Shown in pieces: positions 2,345-38,469 of a DNA stretch of 64,000 nt. The position numbers and the translations under genes are program-made. The notes beneath the pieces are model-generated. The model made no database searches. It was not told where the DNA came from and was given only the letters and a program-made list of their open reading frames with translations. The first letter of the stretch is position 1; the number at the start of each line of letters is the position of its first letter. This DNA is from Escherichia phage AV115, in the sequence record OR352945.1, one strand, 5' to 3'.

Positions 2345-4327
2345 ATGGCACTTCTCTCTCCGGGCGTTGAGCTCAAAGAAACTACCGTACAGAGTACTGT
2401 AGTTAATAACTCCACTGGTACTGCTGCCCTGGCTGGAAAATTCCAATGGGGACCTGCATTCCAGATTAAACAAATCACTGATGAAGTTGCATTGGTTGAT
2501 ATGTTTGGTACTCCTAATACGGATACAGCAGATTATTTCATGTCTGCTATGAACTTCCTTCAATATGGTAATGACCTTCGTGTCGTACGCGCAGTTGATC
2601 GTGATACTGCTAAGAACTCATCTCCTGTGGCAGGCAATATTGAATTCACAATCTCTGCTACTGGTAGTAACTATGCGGTTGGTGATAAAATTATCGTTAA
2701 GTATTTGACCGAAACTGTTGAAGCAGATGGTTATGTCACTTCAGTTGATGTCGATGGTAAAATTCTTAACATTTATATCCCAACCGGTAAAATTATTGCT
2801 CGTGCAAAAGAAATTAATGAATATCCGGCATTGGGTTCTAACTGGACCGCCGAAGTTGCCAGTTCTTCTTCTGGACTTTCTGGCGTTATTACAATTGGTT
2901 CTATCGTAACTGATTCGGGTATTCTGTTAACTGAAGTTGAAACTTCTGAAGAAGCTATTACTTCTCTAACTTTCCAAGAATCTATTAAAAAATATGGTGT
3001 CCCAGGCGTAGTTGCTCTTTATCCTGGTGAACTTGGCGACCAGCTCGAAATTGAAATCGTATCTAAAGCAGACTATGACAAAGGTGCTTCAGCCCAGTTA
3101 AAAATTTATCCTGATGGTGGTACTCGTGCATCTACTGCTAAAGCAATCTTTGGGTATGGCCCACAAACTGATGACCAATATGCAATTATCGTTCGTCGTA
3201 ACGATGCTGTAGTTCAGAGCGTAGTTCTTTCTACTAAACGCGGTGAACGAGATATTTATGGTAGTAATATCTTTATTGATGATTTCTTTGCTAAAGGCGC
3301 AAGCAATTATATTTTCGCTACTGCACAAGGTTGGCCAAAAGGTTTCTCTGGCGTAATCAAACTGGGTGGCGGCTTATCATCTAATGAAACTGTTGACGCT
3401 GGTGATTTAATGGAAGCTTGGGATTTGTTTGCTGACCGCGAATCTGTTAATGCGCAGTTGTTTATTGCCGGTTCTTGTGCAGGTGAATCTTTAGAAGTTG
3501 CTTCTACAGTTCAGAAACATGTTGTAGCAATTGGTGATTCTCGCCAAGATTGCTTGGTTCTTTGCTCACCGCCACGTGCAACTATAGTCGGTATTCCTGT
3601 TAATCGTGCAGTTGATAATCTGGTTGATTGGCGTACTGCGTCAGGAACTTACACTGATAATAACTTTAATGTAAGTTCTACTTATGCCGCTATTGACGGT
3701 AACTATAAATATCAATATGACAAATATAATGATGTGAATCGTTGGGTTCCATTAGCTGCTGATATTGCTGGTCTTTGTGCTCGCACAGACAATATTTCTC
3801 AGCCTTGGATGTCTCCTGCCGGTTATAACCGTGGACAAATTCTTAATGTTATTAAGCTTGCAATTGAAACTCGCCAAGCGCAGCGTGATCGTTTGTACCA
3901 GGAAGCTATTAACCCTGTTACTGGTACCGGTGGTGATGGGTATGTTCTGTACGGTGATAAAACTGCCACTTCTGTTCCTTCACCATTTGACCGTATTAAC
4001 GTTCGTCGTTTGTTCAATATGGTTAAAACGAACATTGGTTCAGCATCTAAATATCGCCTGTTTGAATTGAACAACGCATTTACCCGTTCTTCTTTCCGTA
4101 CAGAGACTTCTCAATATCTACAGGGTATTAAAGCTCTCGGTGGTGTATATAACTTTAAAGTTGTTTGTGATACTACCAATAACACACCAGCAGTTATCGA
4201 CCGTAATGAGTTTGTAGCTACTTTCTACTTACAACCTGCAAGATCGATAAATTATATTACGTTGAACTTTGTAGCAACAGCAACGGGTGCCGATTTCGAC
4301 GAACTAATTGGTGCTGTAGGTGCCTAA
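2345..4327 (+). CDS. 18: contractile tail sheath protein
   Basis: 660 aa, T4 gp18 length and gene order; SD AGAGGA upstream; late promoter at 2310. Confidence 0.95.
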   Translation: MALLSPGVELKETTVQSTVVNNSTGTAALAGKFQWGPAFQIKQITDEVALVDMFGTPNTDTADYFMSAMNFLQYGNDLRVVRAVDRDTAKNSSPVAGNIEFTISATGSNYAVGDKIIVKYLTETVEADGYVTSVDVDGKILNIYIPTGKIIARAKEINEYPALGSNWTAEVASSSSGLSGVITIGSIVTDSGILLTEVETSEEAITSLTFQESIKKYGVPGVVALYPGELGDQLEIEIVSKADYDKGASAQLKIYPDGGTRASTAKAIFGYGPQTDDQYAIIVRRNDAVVQSVVLSTKRGERDIYGSNIFIDDFFAKGASNYIFATAQGWPKGFSGVIKLGGGLSSNETVDAGDLMEAWDLFADRESVNAQLFIAGSCAGESLEVASTVQKHVVAIGDSRQDCLVLCSPPRATIVGIPVNRAVDNLVDWRTASGTYTDNNFNVSSTYAAIDGNYKYQYDKYNDVNRWVPLAADIAGLCARTDNISQPWMSPAGYNRGQILNVIKLAIETRQAQRDRLYQEAINPVTGTGGDGYVLYGDKTATSVPSPFDRINVRRLFNMVKTNIGSASKYRLFELNNAFTRSSFRTETSQYLQGIKALGGVYNFKVVCDTTNNTPAVIDRNEFVATFYLQPARSINYITLNFVATATGADFDELIGAVGA

Positions 4328-5015: not shown

Positions 5016-6587
5016 ATGAAATTTAATATCTTAAGTTTGTTTGCTCCATGGGCAAAAATGGACGAACGTGATTACAAAGACCAAGAAAAAGAAAATTTAG
5101 AATCTATCACCGCACCAAAATTAGACGACGGCGCTAAAGAATACGAAGTATCTGAAAATGAAGCACAGCAAACATATAATGCTATGTTTCAGAGAATGTT
5201 CGGTAGTCAAGAACCAGGGCTCAAATCAACCCGTGAATTAATCGATACGTATCGAAATTTGATGACGAACTATGAAGTGGATAATGCAGTCTCTGAAATA
5301 GTTTCCGATGCTATCGTATATGAAGATGATACAGAAGTCGTTTCTATAAATTTAGACAACACAAAATTTAGTCCAAATATCAAATCAATGATGTTGTATG
5401 AATTTAATGAAGTGTTAAATCATTTATCTTTCCAACGTAAAGGTTCAGATCATTTTAGACGTTGGTATGTGGATTCTCGAATTTTCTTCCATAAAATTAT
5501 TGACCCTAAACGCCCTAAAGAAGGTATTAAAGAGCTTCGTCGTTTAGACCCACGTCAAGTTCAATATGTCCGTGAAGTTATTACAACTACTGAAGCAGGT
5601 GTTAAAATAGTCAAGGGTTATAAAGAATATTTCATTTATGACACATCACACGAATCTTATGCTTGTGATGGTCGCATATATGAAGCTGGCACAAAAATAA
5701 AAATCCCTAAAGCCGCGATTGTTTACGCCCATTCTGGTTTAGTTGATTGTTGTGGTAAAAATATCATTGGTTATTTGCATCGGGCTATTAAGCCAGCGAA
5801 CCAATTAAAACTTCTTGAAGATGCCGTCGTAATTTATCGTATTACTCGTGCCCCCGATCGTCGTGTATGGTACGTTGATACAGGTAATATGCCTTCAAGA
5901 AAAGCAGCAGAACATATGCAACATGTTATGAATACGATGAAAAACCGTATTGCGTATGATGCTACTACAGGCAAGATTAAAAACCAGCAGCATATTATGT
6001 CGATGACCGAAGATTATTGGTTACAACGACGTGATGGTAAAGCGGTAACAGAAGTTGACACATTACCAGGTGCAGATAATACTGGAAATATGGAAGATGT
6101 ACGTTGGTTCCGTAATGCGCTTTATATGGCTTTACGTATTCCTATTACCCGTATTCCAAGTGACCAAGGTGGTATACAGTTTGATGCCGGTACTTCTATT
6201 ACACGAGATGAATTGTCATTTGGTAAATTTATTCGTGAGCTGCAACATAAATTTGAAGAGATATTCCTAGACCCGCTTAAAACTAATTTAATTCTTAAAG
6301 GAATTATTACAGAAGATGAGTGGAATGATGAAATAAATAATATTAAGATAAAATTTCATCGGGATAGTTATTTCTCGGAATTAAAGGATGCTGAGATTCT
6401 GGAGCGTCGCATTAATATGCTTCAGATGGCCGAACCATTTATTGGTAAATATATTTCTCACAGAACAGCTATGAAAGATATTCTTCAGATGTCTGACGAG
6501 GAAATTGAACAAGAGGCTAAGCAAATTGAAGAAGAGTCGAAAGAGGCTCGTTTCCAAGACCCCGACCAAGAACAAGAGGATTTTTAA
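5016..6587 (+). CDS. 20: portal vertex protein
   Basis: 523 aa; position and length as T4 gp20; late promoter at 4980. Confidence 0.95.
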
Positions 6588-34414: not shown

Positions 34415-34723
34415 TTACATAAGAAGCAAACGTTCTACCGGAGTACCATCAACCGAAATTACTTTATCAAGGCGGAAAGAACGCCACTGACCTAACTCGG
34501 TATCGAATGCTCGAACTGATTCACGAGGTTCAGAACGAACTTCTGTTGATGGGTTACTATTTTCATATTTGACTTCAAGTTCGTCGCGGGAAGCAAACAT
34601 CGTACGAACATCACCGTTAGCCTTTTCAAATACAACACAATGAACGCCTACAGACAGAATAGTTTTAATACGTTCACGAAGAACCATAGTTTCTTGTTCA
34701 GTTAAAATCATATTATTCACCAC
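34415..34723 (-). CDS. hypothetical protein
   Basis: 102 aa ORF between cd and gene 31. Confidence 0.45.
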   Translation of the reverse strand: MVNNMILTEQETMVLRERIKTILSVGVHCVVFEKANGDVRTMFASRDELEVKYENSNPSTEVRSEPRESVRAFDTELGQWRSFRLDKVISVDGTPVERLLLM

Positions 34724-35294
34724 AAAAGTTTCGAATTTGTTCCCAATTCAGAGAACGAAGATTATTACGAGAGTACTGAATTACTTCAATACCGGCTTTT
34801 TTTAGAATGTCTGCCCAATTTTCAGGAGATCGGTCATATAATTCTGCATATACAACCTTTTTAATACCTGACTGTGTAATAGCTTTAGTGCAATCAGGAC
34901 ATGGAGAAAGCGTCGTATACAACGTAGCACCTTCAATAGAATTACCTTTACGAGCTGCAAACAAAATTGCATTCAATTCCGCATGGATTTCGTTATTAGC
35001 AGACCATGCACTATGAGCGGCCCGATGTTCTTTAGCCAAAACAAAATTATCCACCCGTCCAAATGCTGTAGTGCCTTCTTTATGCCCAGCAACGATGACC
35101 GGGCTTGGTTTATTCTTCAACCAACCATTTTCGGATGCATGTTCGCAACAGTTTGTACCACCTGAAGGAGAGCCATTATAACCTGTAGAAATAATGCGTC
35201 CATCTTTTTCAATGACGGCGCCAACTTTCCATGAACAACATTTTGATTCTTGAGAAATCAGATAAGCAATCTGAAGATATGTGCTAGCTTTCAT
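34713..35294 (-). CDS. cd: dCMP deaminase
   Basis: 193 aa; HAELNAI and PCPDC zinc-binding motifs. Confidence 0.95.
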   Translation of the reverse strand: MKASTYLQIAYLISQESKCCSWKVGAVIEKDGRIISTGYNGSPSGGTNCCEHASENGWLKNKPSPVIVAGHKEGTTAFGRVDNFVLAKEHRAAHSAWSANNEIHAELNAILFAARKGNSIEGATLYTTLSPCPDCTKAITQSGIKKVVYAELYDRSPENWADILKKAGIEVIQYSRNNLRSLNWEQIRNFCGE

Positions 35295-36286
35295 TATTGA
35301 ACCTTATTAATATAAGTTAACAGCTCTTTAGTTTGTTCCCAACTGATGCACGCATCGGTAATGGAAACGCCATAGGACATATTATCAGAAATTTTTTGAT
35401 TTCCTTCATGTAGGAATGATTCTATCATAATTCCTTTGACCAAATCATTAGCTGCTAAATTTTTACCAATACCAATTTGATTGCTATAATGCCCATCAGC
35501 GTTTGCATGGCTACAGTCAACCATTACATAATGATTCAGACCTACTGCCCTTGCTTTGTTAGAAGCTTCTTGAATATCAGAAGAATGATAGTTCGGGCCG
35601 TTGGTCCCGCCACGCAATACGATATGCGTATTCTGATTACCTTCAGCTTCAACAATGCCTACAGTACCATCGACGTCCATACCCATATACCGATGAGGCC
35701 AGGCGGCACTATACATCGCGTCTGTAGCTACTTTAATAGAACCATTGGTTGCGTTCTTGAAGCCTACGCACATCGGTAGACCTGAAGCAATTTCACGATG
35801 TGTCTGACTTTCAGTCGTACGGGCGCCAATAGCAACCCATGAGAAAATACCAGAAAGATACTTAATCGTGAATGGGTCTAATACTTCAGTTGCTAATGGA
35901 AGTCCCATACGTAGAAGTTTACGACACAATGTTCGTGCAACTATAAGACCGTGGTTCATATCAAAACTTCCGTCAAGATATGGATCATTTACAAGACCTT
36001 TCCAACCTACGGTAGTTCGAGGCTTTTCAAAATAAACGCGCATCACTAACAGAACATTAGGAAGACGAGTTTGAAGTTCAGCCAGACGTTTGCCGTATTC
36101 AACAGCAGCAATAGGGTCATGAATTGAACAAGGACCTACAACAATAAGTTTGCGTGGGTCTTCACCGTTCATAATCGAATTAACTTGTTCGCGATGAGAA
36201 GCCACTTGTGATGCGTAAGCTTCCGACAAAGGAATAATCTCAGCCAGTTCTTTTGGAGAAATAAGTTTTCCGACGACAGGTAACAT
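35294..36286 (-). CDS. 3-deoxy-D-arabino-heptulosonate 7-phosphate (DAHP) synthase, class I
   Basis: 330 aa; full-length similarity to AroG/AroF (GPCSIHD, VYFEKPRTTVGWKGL, IGARTTESQ, KPGxxD motifs); stop overlaps cd start. Confidence 0.88.
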   Translation of the reverse strand: MLPVVGKLISPKELAEIIPLSEAYASQVASHREQVNSIMNGEDPRKLIVVGPCSIHDPIAAVEYGKRLAELQTRLPNVLLVMRVYFEKPRTTVGWKGLVNDPYLDGSFDMNHGLIVARTLCRKLLRMGLPLATEVLDPFTIKYLSGIFSWVAIGARTTESQTHREIASGLPMCVGFKNATNGSIKVATDAMYSAAWPHRYMGMDVDGTVGIVEAEGNQNTHIVLRGGTNGPNYHSSDIQEASNKARAVGLNHYVMVDCSHANADGHYSNQIGIGKNLAANDLVKGIMIESFLHEGNQKISDNMSYGVSITDACISWEQTKELLTYINKVQ

Positions 36287-36406
36287 AACAATCCTTAGGA
36301 GATATAAACAGATTCTGATTCAACAATACCTTTAACCGGATTAGACAGGCTAAGTTGGTAGTGCTCAGATTTATGACCATTCTCGATAGTAATGAGATAG
36401 CTCTCA

Positions 36407-36643
36407 TTATAGTGTTCCATATACTCGAGTTGCTTCAACAAGACCATCACTGCCTAATTTAAGATTAGTAATTTGGTCACCATCTTTAGGATTAACGATT
36501 ATGAGAAAAGAACGTGGAGATTCTTGAATAACTCGTAATGTTGCATCTTGGAAACGTTCAGACACTTTATTGATGAGTGCTTGAGCAAATTCTTTTACTT
36601 TAATCTGAAATTCGTGTACTGTAATTGGGTTTTCACTTAGCAT
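36407..36643 (-). CDS. hypothetical early protein
   Basis: 78 aa; ATG with SD GAGGAA; early promoter at 36672-36701. Confidence 0.45.
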   Translation of the reverse strand: MLSENPITVHEFQIKVKEFAQALINKVSERFQDATLRVIQESPRSFLIIVNPKDGDQITNLKLGSDGLVEATRVYGTL

Positions 36644-36671: not shown

Positions 36672-36701
36672 ATAGTATCACAACTCCACCATGTTGTAAA
36701 C
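36672..36701 (-). promoter_or_regulatory. early sigma70-type promoter (operon containing DAHP synthase and cd)
   Basis: GTTTAC-N18-TACTAT(AAC) on minus strand; leader CAACAAATGAGGAAA before ATG 36643. Confidence 0.55.

Positions 36702-37382: not shown

Positions 37383-37383
<1 letters not shown>
37192..37383 (-). CDS. hypothetical protein
   Basis: 63 aa ORF directly downstream of pseT. Confidence 0.4.

Positions 37384-38469
<1,086 letters not shown>

Follow-up and report, generated by a model that had tools for sequence, protein, structure and literature searches.

An AroF-like DAHP synthase with predicted feedback resistance, encoded ahead of dCMP deaminase in T4-like enterobacterial phages

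Why would a phage encode DAHP synthase, the enzyme that opens the shikimate pathway, next to its dCMP deaminase gene, and does the enzyme still obey the end products that control its bacterial homologues? The question arises from a stretch of 64,000 nucleotides of Escherichia phage AV115 (OR352945.1; hereafter the window). The genome belongs to Mosigvirus (RB69 group), and its first gene is that of the small terminase. An original prediction, made from the sequence alone, had described a 330-residue DAHP synthase at this place. Its coordinates and anatomy are correct, and the strand, which had been left unstated, is the minus strand (Table 1). The locus presents a virus that keeps the enzyme at the gate of a long biosynthetic route and, as its residues suggest, drops the off-switch.

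Table 1. Features of the DAHP synthase locus in the window, with coordinates counted from the first nucleotide of the window.
Feature	Coordinates	Strand	Remarks
DAHP synthase CDS, type I-alpha, AroF-like, PHROG 5045 phage clade	35294..36286	(-)	330 aa + stop
cd, dCMP deaminase, 193 aa, immediately downstream	34713..35294	(-)	Pfam PF00383 1.7e-26; PHROG 174 1.2e-74
Shine-Dalgarno sequence AAGGA, 5 nt (TTGTT) before the DAHP synthase ATG	36292..36296	(-)	sequence inspection
TAATG stop/start overlap, DAHP synthase/cd	35292..35296	(-)	couples both genes
Spacer, 120 nt, from cd.2 to the DAHP synthase gene	36287..36406	(-)	begins with a vestigial copy of the cd start, ATGAGAGCTA
cd.2 homologue, 78 aa, DUF7320	36407..36643	(-)	at the head of the transcription unit
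Sigma-70-type early promoter, TTTACA-17-TACTAT with TG, between cd.3 and cd.2	36672..36700	(-)	
Direct repeat ATAATGA(A/G)AGCTA, proximal copy, at the cd start	35279..35297	(-)	RB69 joined here
Direct repeat ATAATGA(A/G)AGCTA, distal copy, at the cd.2 stop	36392..36410	(-)	

After the preceding in-frame stop, the ATG of the DAHP synthase gene (36286..36284) is the earliest start available, and there is no in-frame start upstream of it. The ribosome-binding site and the overlap with cd that had been predicted are both present: the minus-strand sequence at the end of the gene reads CAATAATGAAAGC, where the TAA stop (35296..35294) and the ATG of cd (35294..35292) have one base in common. This arrangement supports translational coupling of the DAHP synthase to cd. 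The description of the surroundings stood in part, since the gene does adjoin cd but the small ORFs between it and pseT are homologues of cd.2, cd.3, RB69 ORF227c and cd.4, and not of pseT.x. The statement that T4 has small cd.x ORFs here was accurate, with cd.1 occupying the equivalent position. The 120-nt spacer is no remnant of that gene, as it is without similarity to T4 cd.1, and its RNA structure is not significant (fold z = -0.69).

Upstream of the gene, the coding strand has no strong promoter-like site other than the promoter in Table 1. The sequence around it, GGTTTAC...GAGTTGTGATA.TATA.CTCTACC, has a clear homologue in T4, where the annotation gives early promoter Pe133.3, and we saw no terminator-like site between this promoter and cd on the coding strand. 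By homology to the T4 promoter, we infer that cd.2, the DAHP synthase gene and cd are co-transcribed early, in agreement with the early operon that had been proposed.

Profile, structure and alignment searches confirmed the ORF as a type I-alpha, AroF-like DAHP synthase, with the end-to-end similarity that had been claimed. The Pfam profile PF00793 (DAHP_synth_1), which had been put forward as a check, matched at 4.3e-75 (252.6 bits, cutoff 25.5); NCBIfam TIGR00034 (aroFGH) scored 427.9 bits (cutoff 173.2) and NF009395 scored 455.3 (cutoff 343). The scores did not reach the cutoffs of the AroG equivalog NF006723 (363.4, cutoff 568) or of the AroH equivalog NF009396 (386.9, cutoff 463). Among solved structures the best match was E. 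coli AroF (6agm, 7e-105, residues 8-327 aligned), and the phage protein is 51% identical to AroF, 48% to AroG and 44% to AroH. An AlphaFold2 model from a 45-sequence alignment (pLDDT 93.7, pTM 0.92) is a (beta/alpha)8 barrel, which Foldseek superimposed on the DAH7PS structures 4hso, 1kfl and 1qr7 from N. meningitidis and E. coli with a TM score of 0.96 and an rmsd of 1.4-1.5 A.

We then compared residues in an alignment of 123 sequences (25 phage-clade members and 98 bacterial homologues). The metal- and PEP-binding residues, singled out in the original prediction as those to inspect, are intact. The metal ligands C61, H268, E302 and D326 of AroG correspond to C53, H260, E289 and D311 of the window protein and are present in 25/25 members of the phage clade, as are R92, K97, P98, R99, T100, G163, A164, R165, K186 and R234 (AroG numbering). 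The residues binding PEP and erythrose-4-phosphate (E4P), including the KPRT(T/S) motif, R92, R165, K186 and R234, are invariant in the 98 bacterial homologues too, and the window protein has the motif as KPRTT. The phage enzyme shares with AroF, AroG and AroH the type I-alpha barrel, and its residues for metal, PEP and E4P are identical to theirs.

The gene is a catalogued and widely annotated accessory gene of T4-like enterobacterial phages. The window protein and that of PhAPEC2 are 100% identical, many records carry the DAHP synthase annotation, and PHROG 5045 ("phospho-2-dehydro-3-deoxyheptonate aldolase") matches at 2.8e-182, with residues 1-330 on positions 8-337 of the 341 of the profile. 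It was listed as ORF 64 in the phiC120 genome paper, and a Klebsiella phage paper proposed, as speculation, a role in aromatic amino-acid supply. The searchable literature gave passing mentions only, and we found in it no functional study, enzyme assay or infection phenotype for the phage enzyme. A tblastn search of 50,697 phage records, which addressed how widespread the gene is among T4-like phages, found it in 212, all with at least 80% coverage and an intact reading frame: 139 at identities of at least 95%, 47 at 60-80% and 26 below 60%.

These phage proteins form a group of their own. In a search of 5.8 billion proteins, the phage group comprised 24 proteins of 319-343 aa with 56-98% identity; all other matches were bacterial, with at most 55% identity (best about 53-55%) and 341-385 aa. 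The window protein and the 24 phage proteins form, in a neighbour-joining tree of the 123 sequences, a clade without any bacterial member. Mosigvirus, Kanagawavirus PEi20 and Marfavirus F48 have the same gene order, pseT–cd.x–DAHPS–cd–31. So does Gualtarvirus PSTRCR_121, where a homing endonuclease is inserted between the DAHP synthase gene and cd, and so does Bragavirus SdyM_006, which has one ORF more. Set against the PHROG 5045 phages (Mosigvirus, Kanagawavirus, Marfavirus, Bragavirus, Gualtarvirus and related), which have the same family in the same locus beside cd, the window gene is an ordinary member and shows no difference. The monophyly of the phage clade and the occurrence of the cd.2–DAHPS–cd locus in at least five T4-like genera support the view, already taken in the original prediction, that the gene has been resident for long and is no recent host fragment.

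Composition and substitution rates point the same way. The gene has a GC content of 41.2% (37.9% in the window) and a GC3 of 29.6%, within the 15-36% of its neighbours, so that the AT-rich codon usage noticed earlier is real; E. coli aroF, aroG and aroH have 52-53% GC and 51-57% GC3. The dN/dS ratios relative to the genes of Enterobacter phage CIP9, Edwardsiella phage PEi20 and Klebsiella phage Marfa are 0.14-0.18, and by this measure the gene is under purifying selection. Within the genus there are few differences in all (about 5 non-synonymous and 1 synonymous). The high nucleotide identity to phage 348Ecol098PP is no sign of a sweep: the neighbours cd.2 and gp31 are equally close, as in ordinary mosaicism.

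The gene is not present in all close relatives. RB69 is without it and has cd directly after cd.2. The difference between RB69 and the window is bounded by the two copies of ATAATGA(A/G)AGCTA, and 19 nt are common to both blastn segments of this comparison. Searching with a probe of 301 nt across the RB69 junction, we found the empty junction in 20 records. Within Mosigvirus these are RB69, ECO111 5-P, mar005P1, JK36, JK42 and moha; the remaining records, about 78% identical, are of the Dhakavirus group (WG01, QL01 and others). This pattern indicates that the DAHP synthase gene is a cassette gained or lost by recombination. Because RB69 and its relatives are viable without it, the gene is dispensable, and any benefit that it brings is conditional. 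For measuring what an auxiliary metabolic gene contributes to fitness, RB69 and some six further isolates of Mosigvirus can serve as natural nulls. One could take the natural deletion alleles and the short flanking repeats as signs that the gene is a functionless passenger, either a recent host-derived fragment or a decaying one. We consider this extremely improbable given a GC3 of 30% against 51-57% in the host genes, bacterial identities that do not exceed about 55%, and a frame that is intact in every one of the 212 records, with low dN/dS and invariant catalytic residues. Recent capture from a host was rejected on composition, phylogeny and dN/dS.

If the catalytic machinery is that of the host enzymes, the regulatory site is not. 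In type I-alpha enzymes the inhibitor site is built from the N-terminal extension together with a beta-hairpin, at the tight-dimer interface (PMC4735112). None of the 98 bacterial homologues begins later than residue 4, and all have a D/N-D/N motif (D6-D7 in AroG, N7-N8 in AroF), whereas 24 of the 25 phage-clade members start at AroF residue 10-12, the window protein at 10. The phage protein is 9-11 residues shorter at this end than AroF, AroG and AroH, and lacks the segment with AroF N8 or AroG D6-D7. We defined signature columns as those with one residue in at least 85% of the bacteria and a different residue in at least 90% of the phages. Only 6 of the 329 shared columns scanned qualify, and they are, in AroG numbering, P150 to I, Q151 to K, D155 to G, S180 to P, F209 to Y and T223 to A. 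The window protein thus has I141, K142, G146, P171, Y200 and A214 against P, Q, D, S, F and T in bacteria. Five of these positions (P150, Q151, S180, F209 and T223) belong to the canonical inhibitor pocket, and 24-25 of the 25 clade members have I, K, P, Y and A there. F209 and T223 line the Phe pocket in the AroG-Phe structure 1KFL. The position that discriminates Tyr from Phe, AroF G212, is Gly in the phage protein, as it is in AroF.

Several of these positions are familiar from feedback-resistant mutants. Those described include the classical AroG P150L and S180F and AroF Q152I and N8K (PMC11843938, a review; PMC7044121), and yeast Aro4 Q166K (PMC7513737). Three of the six signature substitutions are at such sites (AroG P150, AroG S180, and the site of AroF Q152 and Aro4 Q166K), and the comparison with this set of resistant enzymes, Aro4 K229L included, finds the phage enzyme substituted at the same positions and lacking the N-terminal segment. 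The change in Aro4 may even be the same, from Q to K, if Q166 is equivalent to K142 of the window protein, an equivalence taken from alignment offsets and not from direct alignment. Compared with engineered or selected enzymes, the phage changes are natural, multiple and fixed across the clade, and their effect is predicted. We infer that the phage DAHP synthase is probably insensitive to Tyr, Phe and Trp: its activity is predicted to be unregulated because the N-terminal segment is lost and the inhibitor pocket rewritten. The earlier guess that the phage bypasses feedback inhibition thereby gains specific support at the sequence level, from the N-terminal loss and the replaced resistance positions. 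This prediction of natural feedback resistance is the only addition made here to a gene that was otherwise already known.

Among 76 DAHP synthases from IMG/VR viral contigs, the six residues were found only in the ten T4-like ones. The others, mostly on giant-virus MAG contigs, keep P-Q-D-S-F-T and the full N-terminus, with the exception of one lineage (L025/L026) that has P-N-H-P-Y-S.

The replacements in the pocket are fixed in the clade and not variable, which could mean a new function of the pocket rather than none. An active DAHP synthase could answer not to Tyr, Phe or Trp but to a different effector, such as another metabolite of the shikimate pathway or one specific to the phage. The signature is fixed in 24-25 of 25 members although their pairwise identity goes down to 53%, which is more than a relaxed site should show, and the model keeps the beta6a/beta6b hairpin of which the site is made, with strands at 198-203 and 209-214 aligned without a gap. 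Such a re-tuned site would nevertheless lack the N-terminal segment that closes it from the neighbouring subunit, and no candidate ligand is known. The same positions lie in the tight-dimer interface (PMC4735112), so that structural constraint can explain their conservation more simply. We regard a new effector as unlikely.

The changes could in principle concern the substrate instead. The enzyme would then condense PEP with another sugar phosphate in place of E4P, e.g., with arabinose-5-phosphate to give KDO8P. The phage does make arabinose-5-phosphate, and five-carbon phosphates are weak substrates of the DAHP synthase of E. coli. Against this, the KPRTT motif and every checked residue in contact with E4P or PEP are invariant, none of the 6 signature columns coincides with the catalytic or substrate-binding residues checked, and the NCBIfam matches are of the aroFGH type only, with none to the KdsA-specific model. 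An altered substrate is very unlikely on these grounds.

The reading that we favour, and hold to be probable, is that of an early-expressed, catalytically competent and feedback-insensitive DAHP synthase, derived from AroF, that feeds the shikimate pathway for phage production. Early transcription would start at the promoter that precedes cd.2, and the protein would be made right before dCMP deaminase, together with enzymes of nucleotide metabolism. It would condense PEP and E4P to DAHP, and Tyr, Phe and Trp would not switch it off. In infection the host's own synthesis is shut down, and its AroF, AroG and AroH stay feedback-inhibited and are not renewed, so that it would be the phage enzyme that maintains the entry of carbon into the pathway. 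The output would be aromatic amino acids and possibly other chorismate products, e.g., the pABA moiety of folate. Should the insensitivity be true, T4-like phages of enterobacteria override the end-product control of aromatic biosynthesis in their hosts, and they offer metabolic engineering a naturally evolved, multiply substituted, feedback-resistant DAHP synthase.

The composition of the phage proteome is weak evidence for a higher aromatic demand. The proteins encoded in the window contain 3.86% Tyr and 4.19% Phe, above the averages of about 2.8% and 3.9% in the E. coli proteome. Aromatic demand alone does not explain the gene, because T4 is equally AT-rich and lacks it.

A different use of the same reaction would be to drain E4P (and PEP): the irreversible removal of E4P would pull the transketolase flux (F6P + G3P -> Xu5P + E4P) and raise the supply of pentose phosphates. 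These would serve for nucleotides and for the UDP-arabinose of DNA arabinosylation, with aromatics as a by-product. Mosigvirus DNA contains arabinosylated 5-hydroxycytosine, made from ribulose-5-phosphate (PMC13326640), and the gene sits among genes of nucleotide metabolism; on an unrelated viral contig of 261 kb, a DAHP synthase adjoins thymidylate kinase. We therefore searched for co-occurrence with a chimeric tblastn query combining the DAHP synthase and the phage arabinose-5-phosphate isomerase, which matched 308 records at 471 places. About 163 records have both, including Kanagawavirus, EcS1 and Kosakonia phage Kc304, but these co-occurrences come mostly from a single genus. Among the matches listed, Marfavirus Klebsiella phages and Proteus phage Pm5461 have the DAHP synthase without an isomerase match, while most Acinetobacter and many Serratia and Enterobacter phages have the isomerase without the DAHP synthase. 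RB69 and its relatives also have the isomerase without the DAHP synthase, and RB69 DNA is arabinosylated (PMC13326640). The scheme would moreover waste one PEP per pentose. We consider such a drain quite unlikely. An obligatory link of the DAHP synthase to the arabinosyl-5-hydroxycytosine pathway was rejected, given the pathway without the gene in RB69 and the gene without the isomerase in Marfavirus.

A more far-reaching view would see in the phage enzymes a distinct natural subclass of type I-alpha, with an allosteric site converted to a constitutive state or to a non-aromatic effector, and with a role in rewiring PEP, E4P and pentose-phosphate flux together with nucleotide synthesis and DNA arabinosylation. 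We hold it to be improbable.

Redirection of host carbon by T4-like phages has precedents. T4-like cyanophages carry host-derived talC, zwf, gnd and CP12, which redirect carbon during infection; the enzymes and the hosts are different from those considered here, and we know of no demonstrated shikimate-pathway role for any of the four. Another precedent, for a special-purpose DAHP synthase without its allosteric elements, is PhzC of P. aeruginosa. This type IIB enzyme has lost the elements that form the allosteric sites for aromatic amino acids, is insensitive to them and serves a dedicated pathway (PMC6435475), but it is a bacterial type II enzyme encoded in a phenazine gene cluster, whereas the phage enzyme is of type I-alpha.

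The DAHP synthase cassette is bounded on both sides by a direct repeat of roughly 14-19 nt, ATAATGA(A/G)AGCTA, which is a duplicated cd start. The corresponding junction is empty, i.e., without the cassette, in RB69, JK36, JK42, moha, mar005P1 and ECO111 5-P, and also in Dhakavirus (WG01, QL01 and others). Upstream of the DAHP synthase gene lies a 55-aa ORF, unannotated in relatives, whose N-terminus (MRAIS...) is similar to the start of cd (MKAST...); the duplication of the cd start has probably left this ORF behind as a vestige.

Positions of the features in and around the DAHP synthase cassette and in other genomes
Feature	Sequence	Coordinates	Strand	Remark
Direct repeat copies	window	35279-35297 and 36392-36410		RB69 counterpart: NC_004928.1 134251 (L007, RB69 segment, about 5237-5255)
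55-aa ORF	window	36240-36407	minus	begins at cd.2 TAATG, extends into DAHP synthase start
cd.2 and spacer	window	36287-36643
pseT	window	37383-38282
cd	window	34713-35294	minus	582 nt
Gene 31.1 homologue	window	34415-34723	minus	adjoins cd; PHROG 1086, function unknown
cd of RB69	NC_004928.1	133742-134251		L007 4743-5252
Homing endonuclease gene	L010 (Providencia phage PSTRCR_121)	3490-4056
349-aa DAHP synthase	L025 (IMGVR_UViG_3300028829_003504, 261,788 bp)	2956-4005		also in L026

Identity to phage 348Ecol098PP varies along the region, from 85.7% in pseT and 96.2% in cd to 99.4% in the DAHP synthase gene and 100% over cd.2 and the spacer. A recombinational patchwork of this kind is usual in T4-like genomes. 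The translational coupling of DAHP synthase and cd seen in Mosigvirus is interrupted in PSTRCR_121, where a homing endonuclease gene stands exactly between the two genes.

The cd product has 193 aa (gene of 582 nt) in the window and in T4, whereas in the RB69 record it ends early (...ILKPSWY*), at 169 aa. The short version is probably due to a frameshift or a sequencing error in that record, as with the split ORFs reported for RB69 (PMC13326640). On the other side of cd, the labels of the gene 31.1 homologue disagree across records ('tail fiber protein', 'WYL domain protein', 'SH3 beta-barrel fold protein').

Among IMG/VR contigs, L025 is a large, unrelated viral contig on which a 49% identical DAHP synthase is encoded between a topoisomerase-IB-like ORF and a thymidylate kinase. 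The L025 and L026 proteins have a full-length N-terminus and their pocket carries Q151N, D155H, S180P, F209Y and T223S (AroG numbering), changes that are partly convergent. Type I-alpha DAHP synthase genes also occur on dozens of giant-virus metagenome-assembled contigs (GVMAG, L029-L092; host-DNA contamination is possible). Their products are 40-48% identical, with canonical allosteric residues, and about 13 of the ORFs reach 479-682 aa, which may reflect fusions or an artefact of the ORF extension method.
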